64,000 nt of DNA, taken from Hyphomicrobiales bacterium (lineage in GTDB: Bacteria > Pseudomonadota > Alphaproteobacteria > Rhizobiales > Devosiaceae). The stretch lies in contig WFXU01000024.1 of NCBI GenBank assembly GCA_015490455.1, forward strand, positions 13,663 to 77,662. The letters are read 5' to 3'. Made by a program: the position numbers and the translations under genes. Positions 22,023 through 28,864 of this stretch are shown here, piece after piece; within the stretch, counting starts at the first letter, position 1, and each line of letters opens with the position of its first letter. Below the pieces are notes generated by a model. That model had not been told where the DNA came from. It saw nothing but the letters and a program-made list of their open reading frames with translations, and ran no database searches.

Positions 22023-22856
22023 ATGATAGATGAGGAAAAGGTGCAAATAAGTGAATTTTCAACATCCCTGTTGGAGTGGCTAAGCGCCAACTCTTGGGGA
22101 ATAATAACCGCCCTTATAGTTCTTATTATTGGTTGGATATCTTCGCGCTATTTTGCTTCAATGGTTAGGAGATTAATTGAACGAACACCAAAAATTGATA
22201 AGACAATAGCCCCCTTGCTCAGTCAGCTTGTTCGCTACGCCATTTTAATCGTTACTATCATTATTGTATTAAACCAGTTTGGCGTTGCAACTAATTCCAT
22301 GCTGGCAGTATTGGGCGCTGCTGGCCTTGCTATCGCTTTAGCCTTACAGGGCACTCTTTCTAATGTCGCAGCGGGTGTAATGCTAATCTGGCTACGTCCA
22401 TTTTCTATAGGAGATTATATAAAGGTTGATTCTATTGAGGGAACGGTAAAGGAAATAGGGCTTTTTTCTACCAAATTTGAAACCGCCAATGGGGTTTATA
22501 TATTTGTTCCTAACTCGCAAATTTGGAGCTCTGCAATAGTTAATTTTGATAAGGAGGAAAGACGACGGGTTAATATAAAGGTGGGCATTTCATATGAAGC
22601 AAATATTGAAGAGGCGCGTAAAATTTTACTAAAAATAGCAAAAAATGATGATCGTGTGCTGGATAGGCCAGAGCCGGCTGTTTATGTTGATAGTTTAGGC
22701 GATAGTGCGGTTATTTTAACATTTCGTGCTTGGGTAAAATCCAGTGACTATTATAAAGTGCAATTCTTTTTCAATGAGCAAATTAAGCTGGAATTTGATA
22801 AGGGCAATATTGAAATTCCTTATAATAAGCTTGATGTTAACCTCATCAAGAATTGA
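22023..22856 (+). CDS. mscS: Small-conductance mechanosensitive channel (MscS family)
   Basis: 277 aa with three N-terminal TM helices, a pore-helix-like LQGTLSNVAAGVMLI segment and a beta-domain. Confidence 0.85.
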   Translation: MIDEEKVQISEFSTSLLEWLSANSWGIITALIVLIIGWISSRYFASMVRRLIERTPKIDKTIAPLLSQLVRYAILIVTIIIVLNQFGVATNSMLAVLGAAGLAIALALQGTLSNVAAGVMLIWLRPFSIGDYIKVDSIEGTVKEIGLFSTKFETANGVYIFVPNSQIWSSAIVNFDKEERRRVNIKVGISYEANIEEARKILLKIAKNDDRVLDRPEPAVYVDSLGDSAVILTFRAWVKSSDYYKVQFFFNEQIKLEFDKGNIEIPYNKLDVNLIKN

Positions 22857-23081: not shown

Positions 23082-23105
23082 AATATGTTATGAAATATGT
23101 TATGA
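23082..23105. repeat. Perfect tandem duplication of the 12-mer ATATGTTATGAA
   Basis: Read directly from the sequence. It lies about 25-50 nt outside the left edge of the GC-rich segment. Confidence 0.9.
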
Positions 23106-23129
23106 ACAAAAAGACTATCTCCAAATATA

Positions 23130-26100
23130 ATCGCAGCCACCCTCTAAAAGCAGGGCAGAGGAAAGCCGGGACCTAGTAGCTGTCATCCTCTGGCAGTCGT
23201 GGGACTCTCTAAGCGTTAAGAGGGTTAGGTATGAGGGCGATTATAGGTTGAGGGTCTTAGTAGCGTGCCTTTACAGTGCCGGTATCATTCCACCTCCGCC
23301 ACAATATGCGCTATTGCCAATTCCTGAGCCGGGCTGATTGGGAAGCCGCTCCCGCCCACTGGCGCATTTCCCGTTGCGGAGATGTTGCTACTGGCAAAGC
23401 CTTCATTTTGGAAGCTACGCACCGCGTCCCACAGCGCACCCCCCGTCTCCCAAAGAGACCAGCCGGTTGAAATCGGGTCGCCTATAGCCTCCTTAGTCTT
23501 ATTGATGCCGTAGTTTCGCGCCCATTCCTTTACCGCTTTGCGGGCGCCATCGCGCAGCAGATCACCATTTTCGGCACCACCAGCCCCGCCCTCAATTTTA
23601 CACAGACGCGCCGCCTTTTCGCGAGCCGCATTGACATTGCGATTGAGTAGCGCTTCTTCGCTTTCAATTGTCTCGCCAACTTGTGCCAGCATCAGGGTTG
23701 AGTAACACCACAGCTTATTTTCGCTCTGTTTGAAGGCAACAATGGCTCCTAGTTCGGCGCTAGCAAATGGGGTGAGACCCGCAAAATTGCCATAGGCCGT
23801 CCCATAGAGCGCTAGTAATTTATCAATTTTGTTGAACTGTTGCGCGATCTGCTCTAGCGAAGCACCTTTGGCAAAATTGTCACGGTCTAGATAGAAGGTG
23901 CGAAAGCGATTGCGCAATAATAGATCATAGCTAGTGTCAATCTGCCATAGCCATTGCCGAACTCCGGGTATGCGAACCAATGTTGACCCCTCCCAGCCCG
24001 GAGTGATTGCGGAAAGAAAGCCGGGCGGATAATCCTCGCCTGATATAGCTTCAGAAAGCGGGATAAATTGCAAGGTAGAGCCGGCATCCAGCAGCGCCGA
24101 GATTGCATCTGTTCCACCCAGCAAGCGACCTTCGGCGATGCTGGCGGCTATTTCGCCAGCCATAGTGTCACGGTTCCATTCGCCGCTATTTAGCGGGCGA
24201 GCCGGGCGCAAAAGCACGTCAAAAGCCTCGCGGCGCATCATCTGTTGCCTAGCGCCTAAATCTTGCGTAAGTTCAGCGCGGTGTAAATATAGGATCGGAC
24301 CGGGAGCAGGGCTCACCAAACCGCGTTCGGTGTCAATGGTAGCAAATGCGCGATAGCTATTAACCAGTCGCATCCGCGCTAATGAAGGCCAGCGGCGCGC
24401 CTCATCGTTCAGCCATTGATCCATCGGCTGGGGCGGTGGCGCTTCAGGCGCGGTCTTAATCTCGGTCGGTGTGCGCACCCCCAAAAGGCGCAAAGCATCA
24501 ATCCAACGGCTGAAATAGCGAATTAGATAAGCACGTTCGGGATAGGCACCCAAATCCCCGATTAGCGACCATGTGCCAGTCAAGCGTAGCGCCGTATCTG
24601 CTTGGTCAAGCCGCAACAAAACCCGACGCGCCCGATTATGAACGGCATCATAACCACTAGCCTGTGTAATAACCTCAAGATAGAGATGTGGCACCGCCGG
24701 CGAGCGTGTTCGGGTCGGGGGAATATAGCTACCTTCCGCCGCAAGTGTAGTATCGCGTAAGACTACCGTAATTTGCCGCTCGCCCGAACGTAAGGTGGAA
24801 CTCTCAGAATTGCCTGTCTCTGCCGCTATGGGCGTTTCCATCGCGCCAGATATATTCCCATCGAGAGCGGGTTGTGCATCTGTGTCTACATTCTCATCTA
24901 TCCCAGATTGCACCCGATATTGTAGCTGAACCTGACTAGATATTTCGGCTCCTATCCGGCGGAACAGCGCCTCAAGCCCCTTCGCATCACCCTGATAGGC
25001 TACCTGTCCGCCAGTTTTTTCGGCTAGGCGGGTCAAAAGCGCCGCATCGGCTTCTTCGCCCAGCGGGATTGCATAGATCTTGATTCCAGCCTGTTTTAGC
25101 CGATCAATTATCGCGGCCTCATCTCCGCCCACATTGTCTTCGCCATCGGATAATAGCAGCACGACCCCGCTCGTCAGCGCCTCATTGCGGCTCGTTCTGT
25201 CCAGCGCCCGAAGGATTCCTGTATAGCTATCTAACACCATCGCTTCTACCCCAGCAACAAAATTATCGCGCTCACTCAGAGGCGCCAGCGGCACCAGTTC
25301 ACTCGGCTCAAGGGCAAAGCTAGTCAGACCCACCGGCTGCCCCTCAGAAATTAGGTCTAACAGCGATAGGATTGCGCGCTTGCTGGATTCAAAGGCATCG
25401 GTATCACCCATTGACCAACTGACATCGGTCAGAATCAATAGCGGTCGGGCGCTCTGCCCCACCGACAATAGCCGTAGCGGATAGGCGCGCCCCTGATCGC
25501 GCAATAGAAAATGATCGGGCAGCCATAATCCGCCACCGCTGGCCTTCACCGATAAGCCGACCCGCACCAACGGCCAGTCGGCGCTATCAATCTGGGTGAT
25601 GTCCAGTGCCGTTGCGCTCGTAGGATTGGCAGGGGTGAGTTCATCAGACGCAGTAATGGGCGGACGTAAACCTACTGTGCTGGTGGCTCCGCCAAAGGCC
25701 AGCGAGAACGGCTTGCCCGTTATCTGGCGCCCATTCACCCGCAAATAGGGTTGCCACTGATCCACCTGTTCGGGTTGCGTACCATCGCGCAATTTCCCCA
25801 GAGGATCAATTGCCGGAAGAAAGCGCAGTTCTAATTCTTCTACGGCGGGGTTACCGCTCCATTCAATCAGCGTCTGCTCAAGCCCGCTACTATCTACCAC
25901 GCCCAGTCGTAAGGTGATCGGCACGATTTTAGGCATGTCAAACGAATAAGAATAAAAATCCCACCGGATCTGATCCATCGCCGTGTCCTTTAGCCCGGCA
26001 AGACCTTCTTCTAGCGTTGGATCGTTTCCATCATGCAGCAGGTCAAACACCCGCCGCCTGCCGTCCCGTTCGGCCACGACGACATAGCGTTTCAGCAGTC

Positions 26101-26830
26101 CGTATCCCTCAATGGTGTTGTAGTCATTATAATTGGGATAGTTCAGGCCGGGGCTGTTTTCGTCGGTTTCAAGAAGCTCCAGCGTCTGCTCAACAGTTGC
26201 CGCAATCTCGGCTCTGAGCTCGTCGCCGGCGCTACTTCGGGCGGCGGCTTCTGCTTGCGCCTGCATGTCGGGCGGCAAGGTGACCTCTTTATCCAGAAAC
26301 CGGCGCAGGGCGGTCAGCGCGGGGCTATTCTCGTTTGGGGAACGACCGACCGCCAATGAAGCGTCAGGGAGCGGGGTGAGCTGCAAATAACGGATTTCCC
26401 AACCCATTTCCTCCAAGAGCGTTCCAAATAGCACCGCCCTATCTAGCGGGTTGGCCATACGGGTTGTTAGCACCTGTTCGGGGGTCTGGCGGCGATCCAG
26501 ATAGGGAACCAACGCTATATCTTGCATTATAAAGGAATAGGTAGCATCAGCATCGCCAAGTGTTTTGGCGGCTTTTGTAATGGTGCGACCGGGTGCTTCC
26601 AGTTCGGCGCGGGCATCTTCTAAAAGTTGCAACAATCGCCCGGCAGGATCCTCTTCGCGCCCCAGCAATGACCATAGTAAAAACAATATGAGCGCCAAGA
26701 GTAGCGCTAAAATTGCGCCGATTATCCGCTTGCGGCGAGAATTTTGCGAACGATCTCGGCTCAATAGGCTAACCATCTATCCCCCCTACCTTCACCCCCG
26801 CTATTTTGGGCATATGGGTTATGGTTTAAT
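23130..26830. other. Compositionally foreign GC-rich segment carrying one gene
   Basis: Hand counts on 60-nt lines give 43/60 G+C at 25441-25500 and 35/60 at 24361-24420. The flanks give 16/60 at 26821-26880 and 21/60 at 23041-23100. G/C-ending codons and many spurious antisense ORFs occur only here. Confidence 0.85.
23285..26776 (-). CDS. Large membrane-anchored vWA-domain protein of unknown function (degenerate transglutaminase-like core + vWA + unassigned C-terminal half)
   Basis: An uninterrupted 1163-codon ORF with G-rich SD-like AGGGGGG just upstream of the ATG. Basic N-terminus plus TM helix IIGAILALLLALILFLLWSLL. MIDAS residues DVSWS...SYTG...SDGED. Confidence 0.8.
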   Translation of the reverse strand: MVSLLSRDRSQNSRRKRIIGAILALLLALILFLLWSLLGREEDPAGRLLQLLEDARAELEAPGRTITKAAKTLGDADATYSFIMQDIALVPYLDRRQTPEQVLTTRMANPLDRAVLFGTLLEEMGWEIRYLQLTPLPDASLAVGRSPNENSPALTALRRFLDKEVTLPPDMQAQAEAAARSSAGDELRAEIAATVEQTLELLETDENSPGLNYPNYNDYNTIEGYGLLKRYVVVAERDGRRRVFDLLHDGNDPTLEEGLAGLKDTAMDQIRWDFYSYSFDMPKIVPITLRLGVVDSSGLEQTLIEWSGNPAVEELELRFLPAIDPLGKLRDGTQPEQVDQWQPYLRVNGRQITGKPFSLAFGGATSTVGLRPPITASDELTPANPTSATALDITQIDSADWPLVRVGLSVKASGGGLWLPDHFLLRDQGRAYPLRLLSVGQSARPLLILTDVSWSMGDTDAFESSKRAILSLLDLISEGQPVGLTSFALEPSELVPLAPLSERDNFVAGVEAMVLDSYTGILRALDRTSRNEALTSGVVLLLSDGEDNVGGDEAAIIDRLKQAGIKIYAIPLGEEADAALLTRLAEKTGGQVAYQGDAKGLEALFRRIGAEISSQVQLQYRVQSGIDENVDTDAQPALDGNISGAMETPIAAETGNSESSTLRSGERQITVVLRDTTLAAEGSYIPPTRTRSPAVPHLYLEVITQASGYDAVHNRARRVLLRLDQADTALRLTGTWSLIGDLGAYPERAYLIRYFSRWIDALRLLGVRTPTEIKTAPEAPPPQPMDQWLNDEARRWPSLARMRLVNSYRAFATIDTERGLVSPAPGPILYLHRAELTQDLGARQQMMRREAFDVLLRPARPLNSGEWNRDTMAGEIAASIAEGRLLGGTDAISALLDAGSTLQFIPLSEAISGEDYPPGFLSAITPGWEGSTLVRIPGVRQWLWQIDTSYDLLLRNRFRTFYLDRDNFAKGASLEQIAQQFNKIDKLLALYGTAYGNFAGLTPFASAELGAIVAFKQSENKLWCYSTLMLAQVGETIESEEALLNRNVNAAREKAARLCKIEGGAGGAENGDLLRDGARKAVKEWARNYGINKTKEAIGDPISTGWSLWETGGALWDAVRSFQNEGFASSNISATGNAPVGGSGFPISPAQELAIAHIVAEVE

Positions 26831-27208
26831 TTGAGGCATATAAATTTAAGCCAGATATATTTTAATCGGCTCTATTTTGATACCTAATTATAGGACTATT
26901 CTAGGTCATAATACATAAAATTACCAGCCATATTATTATCAATTCGCGTGATGCTGATTGTTTGACCGGCAAAGACTTGGCTATGGGCAGAATAATTGCG
27001 GTTCATCCAGCGGCCAGATTCAAGATGACCAATTACCATTTAATAGCTGAACTTTGTCTCATATAGCCACTATAATTGCGAATAGTCTTTCTAGATTGCG
27101 GGTTAAAGTTACCGATTTACGGTTTCCGCAAATATCAATATGTTAAAAATTCTTCCCGAACGAACATTTAACAATCTTCCTTAGTTGCTCTGTCCCAATG
27201 CACAACGC

Positions 27209-27241
27209 AACTTAGAATCTAACTTATAATCTAACTTAGAT
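27209..27241. repeat. 12-nt tandem repeat AACTTAGAATCT / AACTTATAATCT / AACTTAGAT
   Basis: Read directly from the sequence: 2.75 units, one mismatch, about 45 nt beyond the erpA stop. Confidence 0.85.
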
Positions 27242-27286
27242 GTTCAATTTTAGTCATTAGAATGCGCTGACCAAAGCATCCCTATA

Positions 27287-27631
27287 TTAGAGGGAAAAAC
27301 TAGATCCACAGCCACAGGAAGCAACTGCATTTGGGTTGTCAATCTGGAAAGATTGTCCTGCTAATTCGTCAATAAAATCTATTTTGCTGCCTTGCATAAA
27401 TTGTAATGAAAGCGAATCGATTAAAATTCTTGCTTTTTCATTACCTAAAATAAGGTCATCTTCATTTGGCTTTTCTTGCACTAAATTATATTCATAAGAA
27501 AATCCTGAACACCCTCCTCCAGTAACAGAAATACGTAAAACAGTTCCCTTTGGCTCTTTAGCAATAATTTTGGCTATTTGTTTAAGGGCGCTATCAGTTA
27601 CCGTAATTTTTGCCATATTTTGTTCGTTCAT
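27287..27631 (-). CDS. erpA: Iron-sulfur cluster insertion protein (IscA/HesB/ErpA family)
   Basis: About 114 aa with GGGCSGF and C-terminal CGCGSSF cluster ligands. I chose the ATG at 27631; the track ORF begins at a TTG at 27646. Confidence 0.85.
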   Translation of the reverse strand: MNEQNMAKITVTDSALKQIAKIIAKEPKGTVLRISVTGGGCSGFSYEYNLVQEKPNEDDLILGNEKARILIDSLSLQFMQGSKIDFIDELAGQSFQIDNPNAVASCGCGSSFSL

Positions 27632-27712
27632 TTTCTTACTTTCCAAATTAATATCTCTAAGATAGGTTGATAAAATAAAATTGCAAAGGGAATATAAAGG
27701 GGAATATATTTA

Positions 27713-28864
27713 ATGAGCATGTTAGCAAAATATGCAACCCTTGCTCAATATTCACAAGGGAGAAAATTTACAACCGAAAACAGCCCTACAAGAACCCAAT
27801 TTCAGCGTGATCGCGATAGAATCATCCATTCAACTGCCTTTCGCCGTCTCCAATATAAAACACAAGTATTTGTGCGCCATGAAGGAAAGCACTTTAGAAC
27901 CCGATTAACCCATACATTGGAAGTTAGCCAAATTGCTCGCTCAATTTCGCGTGCTTTGAAGGTTGATGAAGATTTAGCCGAAGCAATAGCTTTAGCTCAT
28001 GATTTAGGTCATCCGCCATTTGGTCATGCGGGTGAGAGGGTGTTGGATAAAAAAATGCAAATTTGGGGAGGATTTGAGCATAATTTACAGTCTTTACGCA
28101 CAGTTACAAAATTAGAAAAACGTTATGCCGAACATGATGGATTAAATCTTACTTGGGAATGTCTTGAGGGGATATTAAAACATAATGGACCGATAATAAA
28201 TGAAAAAAACAAGGAGAAACTAAGTTTTATCAATTATTTAGAGCCAGAAACTTATGCAGGTTTAGAGGCGCAAATTGCTGCTATTGCCGATGATATAGCC
28301 TATAATGCTCACGATATTGATGATGGTTTAAGGGCGGGTTTGATTAAATTAGGAGATTTAATGGAAGTAGAAATATTAGCACCAATTGTCAAAACAATAT
28401 TGCATCAATGGCCGCATATTTCGGAGCAAAGACAGGCGCATGAGGTGCAGCGCCGCTTAATCACTGCTACAATTGAAGATGTTATTACTAGTTCAAGAGA
28501 AAATATTATTCGATTAAATCCGCAAAATGTTAATCAAGTGCGCAATGCAGGTAAGCAAATAATTATTTTTTCTGAGAAATTTACAAAATTAGAAAAAGAA
28601 TTAAAGCAATTTATGTATAAAAATATTTATAATTCCAGCGAAGTTAAAAAAGATGCCAGAAGGGGCGAAAAAATAATAGCGAAATTATTTGATTTTTTAA
28701 TCCAAACACCCATTTTGCCAAAAGATTGGCAGAATAAATTTGATTTGGCAAAGAATGAGAAAAAACGGGCAAGAATAATATGCGATTATATTGCCGGCAT
28801 GACAGATCAATATGCAATTGATTTATATGAGCAAATATTTGACGAGAAAGTAAAATTGAGCTAG
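27713..28864 (+). CDS. dgt: dGTP triphosphohydrolase-like HD-domain protein
   Basis: 383 aa with RTRLTHTLEV and HDLGHPPFGH motifs. Confidence 0.85.
   Translation: MSMLAKYATLAQYSQGRKFTTENSPTRTQFQRDRDRIIHSTAFRRLQYKTQVFVRHEGKHFRTRLTHTLEVSQIARSISRALKVDEDLAEAIALAHDLGHPPFGHAGERVLDKKMQIWGGFEHNLQSLRTVTKLEKRYAEHDGLNLTWECLEGILKHNGPIINEKNKEKLSFINYLEPETYAGLEAQIAAIADDIAYNAHDIDDGLRAGLIKLGDLMEVEILAPIVKTILHQWPHISEQRQAHEVQRRLITATIEDVITSSRENIIRLNPQNVNQVRNAGKQIIIFSEKFTKLEKELKQFMYKNIYNSSEVKKDARRGEKIIAKLFDFLIQTPILPKDWQNKFDLAKNEKKRARIICDYIAGMTDQYAIDLYEQIFDEKVKLS

Follow-up and report, generated by a model that had tools for sequence, protein, structure and literature searches.

A predicted membrane-anchored vWA protein with a C-terminal domain of no known relative, horizontally acquired as a single gene by a Hyphomicrobiales bacterium

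The locus and the layout of the protein

In a 64,000-nt stretch of DNA from a Hyphomicrobiales bacterium (contig WFXU01000024.1, positions 13,663 to 77,662; hereafter the window), we analysed a minus-strand gene at 23285–26776 that encodes a 1163-aa protein with a vWA (von Willebrand factor A) domain. The open reading frame (ORF) runs from ATG to stop; a first-pass annotation, made by a model from the sequence, had proposed the same coordinates but was silent on the strand. The gene lies between an MscS channel gene (22023–22856, plus strand) and an ErpA-like iron–sulfur (Fe-S) gene (27287–27646, minus strand). One flank carries genes for LacI, PEPCK, FBA, FBPase, NMT1 and a TRAP transporter, and the other carries genes for an HD hydrolase, ArgRS, SPOR, ScpA, an ABC ATPase and Tat. 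The order erpA, HD hydrolase, argS, SPOR, scpA and tat is suggestive of an alphaproteobacterial host. In agreement with the absence of a MoxR, Bat, pilus or sortase context claimed in the first-pass annotation, no MoxR, DUF58, Bat, pilus or sortase gene was found within ~10 kb of the gene, and no integrase or transposase gene was seen near it. Comparisons with other proteins indicate that its product is a member of a small, previously undescribed and uncharacterised family. The features of the gene and protein are as follows.

23285–26776, minus strand: complete ORF, 1163 aa plus stop, with a Shine-Dalgarno-like purine-rich GGGGGGA a few bases 5′ of the ATG
26660–26776, minus strand: residues 1–39, basic cytoplasmic tail and single transmembrane (TM) helix, a signal anchor predicted N-in/C-out (hydropathy, charge distribution)
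25991–26659, minus strand: residues 40–262, putative transglutaminase-like (TGL; papain-fold) domain with a helical insert at ~136–225 (sub-threshold Pfam match and family alignment)
25442–25990, minus strand: residues 263–445, conserved region joining the TGL-like domain to the vWA domain, with invariant P321 and W341 (family alignment)
24941–25441, minus strand: residues 446–612, vWA domain with a complete metal ion-dependent adhesion site (MIDAS) (Pfam, alignment, PDB profile matches)
25412–25426, 25220–25222 and 25145–25147, minus strand: MIDAS sites DxSxS, T519 and D544, respectively (sequence)
24788–24940, minus strand: residues 613–663, variable low-complexity linker, mean conservation 0.17 (family conservation)
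23288–24787, minus strand: residues 664–1163, family-specific C-terminal region with no known relative (searches and structure model)
23666–23821, minus strand: residues 986–1037, Gly/Ala/Ser-rich low-charge stretch, polar turn, then LWCYSTLMLAQVGETI (conservation)
23120–26810, no strand: GC-rich island (~0.50–0.62 GC) containing this gene only, in flanking DNA of 0.35–0.41 GC

Residues 18–36 form the only strong hydrophobic segment of the protein (Kyte–Doolittle 2.87); on its N-terminal side lies a basic tail (RDRSQNSRRKR) and on its C-terminal side an acidic stretch. A single N-terminal hydrophobic segment is common to all 37 aligned family members. Since the basic tail is followed by one hydrophobic segment, we predict an N-in/C-out signal anchor, i.e. 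a type-II membrane-anchored protein with its bulk in the cell envelope. The segment is ~22 residues long in the window protein and has no obvious signal-peptidase site. In several other members, a Cys directly follows the N-terminal hydrophobic segment and may mark lipoprotein variants.

The vWA domain is the only Pfam domain above threshold (PF00092, residues 447–605, 45.2 bits against a cut-off of 23.8, E = 1.5e-11), and the same Pfam family was matched by 29 of the 37 family members. All MIDAS residues (D451, S453, S455, T519 and D544) are present, with D451, S455 and D544 invariant across the 37 sequences. PDB sequence-profile searches with full-length profiles returned vWA matches only, and the window protein contains no HExxH motif. 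The last ~60 residues of the joining region (ITQIDSADWP...HFLLRDQG) correspond to a module found before vWA domains in many other proteins: many unrelated vWA proteins matched the family profile starting ~55–75 residues ahead of the vWA domain, and giant multi-vWA/PKD proteins share this module with the family. The matches of unrelated vWA proteins lend indirect support to the beta-rich character predicted in the first-pass annotation for residues ~280–440. Domains of the vWA type have been predicted to recruit substrates (PMC3495828, PMC7159879).

Ahead of this region, the window protein fell short of the Transglut_core (PF01841) threshold, scoring 12.7 bits at residues 67–131 where 23 are required (E = 0.17). 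The same Pfam family matched 12 of the 37 members (best E = 4.7e-7), and one relative, P0067, scored above the cut-off (32 bits). When a profile of the N-terminal region was compared with the PDB, the top matches were a transglutaminase-like protein and the pseudomurein endoisopeptidase PeiW, both non-significant; the Cys-bearing 'NC' motif of PeiW, taken as holding its catalytic Cys, aligns with 'N-x' in the family. The putative transglutaminase assignment is therefore one made at the level of the family and not from the window sequence by itself.

The window protein lacks the Cys-His-Asp catalytic triad of the transglutaminase-like superfamily. The nucleophile position is occupied by Pro110, and only 2 of the 37 members have Cys there; the His position is unconserved in the family alignment, where Trp or Arg usually stands there. 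The window protein has a degraded 'FDLL' in place of the Asp motif 'FDP'. Even so, only one other 15-mer of the family is better conserved than the helix of the lost nucleophile (residues 106–120, RMANPLDRAVLFGTL). Because the Cys is absent in 35 of 37 members yet the helix is strongly conserved, the pattern fits a pseudo-enzyme kept as a binding module. Inactive TGL domains have been predicted to bind peptides in comparative work (PMC3495828). The 780-aa relative P0067 retains a Cys at the nucleophile position of its TGL-like domain (GNCTDQ) and has a C-terminal-like domain, without a vWA domain and without the Cys pair described below. The P0067 case shows that the predicted vWA, TGL-like and C-terminal modules are separable.

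For the C-terminal half, Pfam gave no match in any of the 37 members, and a profile of 25 sequences gave no match to PDB sequences at E ≤ 10. Scans of the window protein returned only sub-threshold vWA-region matches in NCBIfam, none in PHROGs and 0 families at E ≤ 1 in PADLOC-DB v2. An AlphaFold2 (AF2) model of the C-terminal region, made from a 25-sequence alignment, had a predicted local distance difference test score (pLDDT) of 68 (a 6-sequence version, at 43.6, was unusable) and comprises a small beta-sandwich (664–725), an alpha/beta part (726–965) and a bundle of long helices (966–1125). Foldseek with this model found no match in the PDB (best E = 0.54) or in BFVD (best E = 0.19).

The most conserved segment of the family, 'ENKLWCYSTLMLAQV' (conservation 0.68), lies in the C-terminal helical region. 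On its N-terminal side, all members have a low-charge 30-mer rich in Gly, Ala and Ser and then a polar turn. The hydrophobicity of the Gly-rich stretch (median best 18-residue Kyte–Doolittle value 1.26) is under the usual TM threshold. Invariant Cys1024 (23705–23707) and Cys1059 (23600–23602) bracket this most conserved region. Since the protein is predicted to be extracytoplasmic and has no other cysteines than these two, both invariant, a disulfide between them is the most plausible arrangement. The spacing of E882, K970 and C1024 suggested a nitrilase-like Glu-Lys-Cys triad, which was rejected because C1024 is part of a long predicted helix and neither Pfam nor fold comparison gave a CN-hydrolase match. 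A short motif is conserved at the very C-terminus, reading 'P.FH.AM' in members of the deeper clades and 'SPAQELAIA.IVA' in those of the window clade.

These analyses bear out the layout given in the first-pass annotation, i.e. a basic tail and N-terminal TM helix, a transglutaminase-core-like segment lacking the nucleophile, a vWA domain with complete MIDAS, no HExxH with only two cysteines, and an unassigned C-terminal half.

Family, hosts and acquisition of the gene

A word-indexed search of 5.8 billion proteins returned only six clusters, 58–100% identical over the full length. An exhaustive profile search of 1.84 billion representatives recovered 38 with E < 1e-30, most of them 990–1100 aa long and most matching the N-terminal, vWA and C-terminal parts. 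We estimate the family at 40–50 clusters at 50% identity. Fourteen residues are invariant in 37 sequences (A70, F82, Y92, R106, P321, W341, D451, S455, D544, E882, K970, G971, C1024 and C1059). The window protein has all the defining features of the family, namely the N-terminal TM segment, the TGL-like helix, the MIDAS, an 'AKGA' motif and the 'LWC...LC' Cys pair.

Scanning a single genome for each species gave 28 loci. Hosts include Robiginitomaculum, Parvularculaceae, Emcibacter, Maricaulis maris DSM 4734, Ahrensia marina, Oricola indica, Sphingomonas and other Alphaproteobacteria, as well as Verrucomicrobiales and one Planctomycetota metagenome-assembled genome; the alphaproteobacterial hosts are marine. 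A search of viral contigs found no family members. One protein, P0007, had the appearance of a stand-alone C-terminal domain and was rejected as such, because the vWA and pre-vWA parts are encoded upstream on its contig in different frames; P0007 is, by this reading of its contig, a frameshifted full-length member. A divergent member (~31% identical in the C-terminal part) is spread across three reading frames at L015:2–2326, where a 494-aa gene call mimics a stand-alone C-terminal domain; this locus is a pseudogene or an assembly error.

In the window, the GC content of the gene is 0.553, compared with 0.35–0.41 elsewhere in the 64 kb (background ~39%). GC content at third codon positions (GC3) is 0.557 in the gene, 0.24–0.34 in its neighbours and 0.72–0.88 in five close homologues. 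As GC3 also deviates, the anomaly is not an effect of amino-acid composition, and the intermediate value looks like partial amelioration of this copy. The close homologues lie in five unrelated contexts in DNA of 62–69% GC; their neighbours are transposase fragments, a CRISPR-Cas locus of type I-C, a gene for a phage portal or giant RHS/PEGA proteins, and DNA similarity to the homologues ends at the ORF boundaries. The first-pass annotation had implied a foreign origin, and both the one-gene GC/GC3 island and the unrelated high-GC contexts of the closest homologues indicate that the gene was acquired horizontally as a single gene. The donor was probably a high-GC marine alphaproteobacterium. 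The gene is mobile enough to have entered, as a single gene, a genome 16 GC points away.

The gene is probably functional rather than a relic, since the 3.5-kb ORF is uninterrupted, all 14 family-invariant residues are kept and public copies differ by one residue. A near-identical protein (single substitution S879A) occurs on five public contigs, of which four are shown, from four samples; wherever flanking DNA is available, the neighbours are the same.

A mobile element was sought but is not supported, as no transposase or integrase gene was seen, there is no tRNA and the similarity to homologue DNA ends at the ORF. Rfam and tRNA searches were negative both around the gene and across the whole 64-kb window, and promoter and terminator scans gave chance-level results only. 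An imperfect 25-nt inverted repeat (23110–23134 / 27066–27090) brackets the gene with 19 of 25 matches, barely above chance (maximum of 18 in 30 shuffles); its left arm lies at the GC transition and its right arm ~260 bp outside the island. Tandem duplications of 12 nt occur in AT-rich intergenic DNA on either side (23082–23105, 27209–27232 and 27685–27708), e.g. AATATGTTATGA twice.

The nearest relative that we found when looking for an empty site, L044:6938–11084 (MscS 74% identical), has mscS without a family gene beside it. It is syntenic with the window for the TRAP, NMT1, PEPCK, LacI and MscS genes, without the FBA and FBPase genes, and synteny is lost right after mscS, where an acyl-CoA synthetase gene and then a LeuA-like gene follow. 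Because synteny breaks at mscS, we rejected L044 as a clean empty site. GC skew in the window is negative over 1–27 kb and positive over 28–52 kb, switching at ~27000–28000, at the divergent pair of erpA-like and HD-hydrolase genes where gene orientation also flips. A replication origin near 27 kb was rejected, as there is no DnaA-box cluster, and the switch probably reflects gene-strand bias.

Partners in other clades and the proposed role

Neighbour clustering over 33 loci revealed no family-wide common partner and two clade-specific ones. At ten loci (L022, L031, L033, L035–L040 and L042), an upstream gene for a Sel1-repeat protein overlaps or closely precedes the family gene; these proteins are ~430–570 aa long with an N-terminal hydrophobic, signal-peptide-like segment (read by eye). 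The 545-aa partner of L033 (6232–7869), scanned as a representative, also has an F5/8-type-C (discoidin) domain, and genes for outer-membrane protein (OMP) beta-barrels then follow in L033, L035 and L036. At three loci (L025, L041 and L043), the upstream gene encodes a 250–280-aa protein with a similar N-terminal hydrophobic segment and no Pfam match. The description of a lone vWA protein in the first-pass annotation thus holds for the window clade and fails in these distant clades, where secreted partner genes occur. Among 127 neighbours, a Pfam census listed Sel1 (7), OMP_b-brl (4) and Peptidase_S11, DPBB_1 and SPOR (2 each; the first two being PBP5-type carboxypeptidase and RlpA-type DPBB), and MoxR was not among the top families. 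A PADLOC census of the same neighbours gave a single Cas locus and generic ATPase matches only.

One member is fused to a toxin cassette. P0030 (2427 aa; L124:1734–9526, also in L125) consists of a TM segment, a PKD domain and the complete family scaffold, followed by a ~60-residue Pro/Gly-rich linker and an RHS cassette (DUF6531, RHS repeats, RHS core and a C-terminal toxin). The scaffold was matched by BLASTP over residues 48–764 (E = 1e-34) and the C-terminal domain by hhalign (probability 99.75%, E = 2.9e-27). An overlapping 172-aa immunity-like ORF follows P0030, and no type VI secretion system (T6SS) genes are present on its contig. Elsewhere, a same-strand cluster at L011:1–13510 encodes an RHS protein (2054 aa), a PEGA protein (1318 aa), a 1599-aa protein and the family member P0006. 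The 1599-aa protein contains an N-terminal paralogue of the family TGL-like domain that keeps the Cys ('AGNSCDQAALL').

We infer, with a probability of roughly 45%, that the window protein is a non-catalytic, metal-dependent binding or presentation scaffold in the cell envelope. Binding, as opposed to catalysis, outside the cytoplasm is suggested by the architecture and predicted topology, by conservation of the MIDAS, and by the secreted partners together with the fusion to RHS. A role in cell-surface or envelope interactions is suggested by the linkage of the scaffold elsewhere to a secreted Sel1/discoidin protein, OMP beta-barrel genes and an RHS toxin cassette. Capture of an acidic residue of the ligand by the MIDAS is established for vWA domains generally, and the vWA domain of this protein would likewise capture an acidic residue of a protein ligand. 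The dead TGL-like domain, with its conserved pocket helix, would serve as a peptide-binding module. The new C-terminal domain would be the family-specific functional core, probably held by the Cys1024–Cys1059 disulfide, and its Gly-rich hydrophobic helix-turn-helix may interact with membranes. If this is correct, marine Alphaproteobacteria would have, in this family, a new type of device for organising the envelope or for adhesion.

Several points weigh against such a scaffold. The window clade has no partner gene, and the idea of partner binding is based on distant clades; only one of ~45 family members carries the RHS fusion. The AF2 model of the C-terminal region is of only medium confidence (pLDDT 68), and as the most conserved part of the protein has no assignable fold or activity, it may have a catalytic or membrane-active role. 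Finally, some members may undergo cleavage or lipid modification at the N-terminal segment, and the protein could then be released. We still rank the scaffold first, ahead of adhesin, conflict-system, membrane-active and relic explanations.

The foremost alternative, which we consider unlikely, is a surface or secreted adhesin in which the N-terminal segment is an export signal and the vWA and TGL-like modules bind a host, particle or cell. Domains of the vWA type are classic adhesion modules, and several host genera (e.g. Maricaulis and Robiginitomaculum) are described as surface-attaching marine bacteria. In addition, a PKD domain is added in P0030, the module before the vWA domain recurs in giant multi-vWA/PKD proteins, giant PKD/PEGA/RHS proteins are clustered at L011, and the Cys just after the hydrophobic segment of some members could belong to a lipobox. 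The window protein, however, has no obvious signal-peptidase site after its ~22-residue segment, and no outer-membrane anchor, autotransporter, type I, type V or type IX secretion (T1SS/T5SS/T9SS) signal or secretion genes were seen nearby.

Less likely again is a conflict-system component that works alone, for example in defence against phage, in surface exclusion or in competition between bacteria, and that has spread as an accessory gene. In its favour, the distribution is patchy and the gene was clearly acquired horizontally. Close homologues adjoin a CRISPR-Cas locus of type I-C, fragments of transposases, a gene for a phage portal and one for an RHS protein, and one RHS-toxin fusion is followed by an immunity-like ORF. 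Against this, there was no PADLOC or PHROG match, the neighbour census gave only one Cas locus and generic ATPases, the family was not found in viral contigs and many members sit among housekeeping and envelope genes. An extracytoplasmic location also leaves the protein with no obvious effector or NTPase.

Two further proposals place membrane activity in the C-terminal domain. The broader one, which strikes us as improbable, holds that this domain is an unrecognised membrane-insertion or translocation module and the family a new self-contained envelope route that presents or delivers cargo, with P0030 as the cargo-bearing form and the stand-alone proteins, the window protein among them, as cargo-less or self-acting forms that spread horizontally. 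The other, which we regard as more doubtful still, takes the helical domain as a membrane-inserting module (a pore-forming toxin or cargo translocator) with the vWA and TGL-like domains as receptor binders. In its favour, the top-conserved segment is a Gly/Ala-rich low-charge 30-mer, turn and hydrophobic helix with GxxxG motifs in a predicted helical bundle, the invariant Cys pair could lock it, and in P0030 the RHS cage and toxin come after the C-terminal domain via the Pro/Gly-rich linker. Its hydrophobicity, however, falls short of a usual TM segment, Foldseek gave no pore-former or translocation-domain match, the domain shows conservation and not polymorphism, and the stand-alone members have no immunity-like gene after them. 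Were the domain to act on membranes, the fusion to RHS would hint at a new way of presenting toxins.

A decaying relic of transfer, functionless in its host, is very improbable: the lack of partner, mobility or regulatory genes around it, its intermediate GC3 (some amelioration) and the frameshifts in the divergent relative L015 would fit, but the ORF is uninterrupted, every family-invariant residue is retained and contigs from four samples encode practically the same protein.

Comparison with known systems

Membrane-linked vWA and transglutaminase-like proteins are common in bacteria, and their function is usually discussed together with the MoxR ATPase. In the present family, vWA and TGL-like modules are fused, predicted to lie outside the cytoplasm and ATPase-free, and the peptidase nucleophile is lost; the family adds a ~500-residue domain with no relative in Pfam, the PDB or predicted viral structures. 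The family is testable in three carriers available in culture, Maricaulis maris DSM 4734, Ahrensia marina ac1 and Oricola indica JL-62.

The nearest described system is the operon of a MoxR AAA+ ATPase, a vWA (DUF58) protein and a membrane-linked TGL protein of YebA/TgpA type (Zhang and Aravind 2012, PMC3495828). Both systems combine TGL-like and vWA domains at the membrane, and for the operon it was proposed that the vWA protein recruits the substrate and that inactive TGL domains are peptide binders (PMC3495828). In contrast, the window protein fuses the two in one polypeptide, has no MoxR gene within ~10 kb, lacks the TGL nucleophile, has one TM helix instead of about eight, is predicted to be extracytoplasmic (i.e. 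on the opposite side of the membrane) and carries an extra 500-aa new C-terminal domain. It is also unlike TgpA-type proteins in having a single TM segment, no TgpA-related Pfam match and no nucleophile.

BatA/BatB aerotolerance proteins (PDB 3ibs and 4jdu; Borrelia BB0172/BB0173) likewise have an N-terminal TM anchor followed by a MIDAS vWA domain, and the Sel1 (TPR-like) partner of the distant clades recalls the vWA-plus-TPR theme of the Bat operon. However, the window protein scored only 15.6 bits with NCBIfam BatA (cut-off 380) and 15.4 bits with BatB (cut-off 350), has no MoxR, DUF58 or BatC-E neighbour and is 3–4 times longer, and Bat proteins lack its transglutaminase-like and C-terminal domains. 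The first-pass annotation had named a routine BatA/B- or TgpA-type protein as the result that would overturn its view; with BatA and BatB far under their cut-offs and no TgpA match, that did not materialise.

The best single-sequence matches for the vWA domain were CLCA proteins (TIGR00868; CLCA1 vWA structure 6pyo), which are loosely alike in layout, with a protease-fold domain, then a vWA domain, then extracellular beta-rich domains. TIGR00868 matched in the vWA region only, at 36.3 bits against a cut-off of 900.85, and CLCA has an active metalloprotease domain, whereas the window protein has a dead transglutaminase-like domain and no HExxH. Compared with RHS polymorphic toxins that have non-PAAR N-terminal regions, the scaffold of P0030 takes the N-terminal trafficking or presentation position; the window protein itself has no RHS repeats, toxin domain or immunity-like neighbour. 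By these comparisons, it is best described as a predicted membrane-anchored vWA protein, distinct from the BatA/B, TgpA, CLCA and MoxR-linked types, that carries a domain without a known relative.

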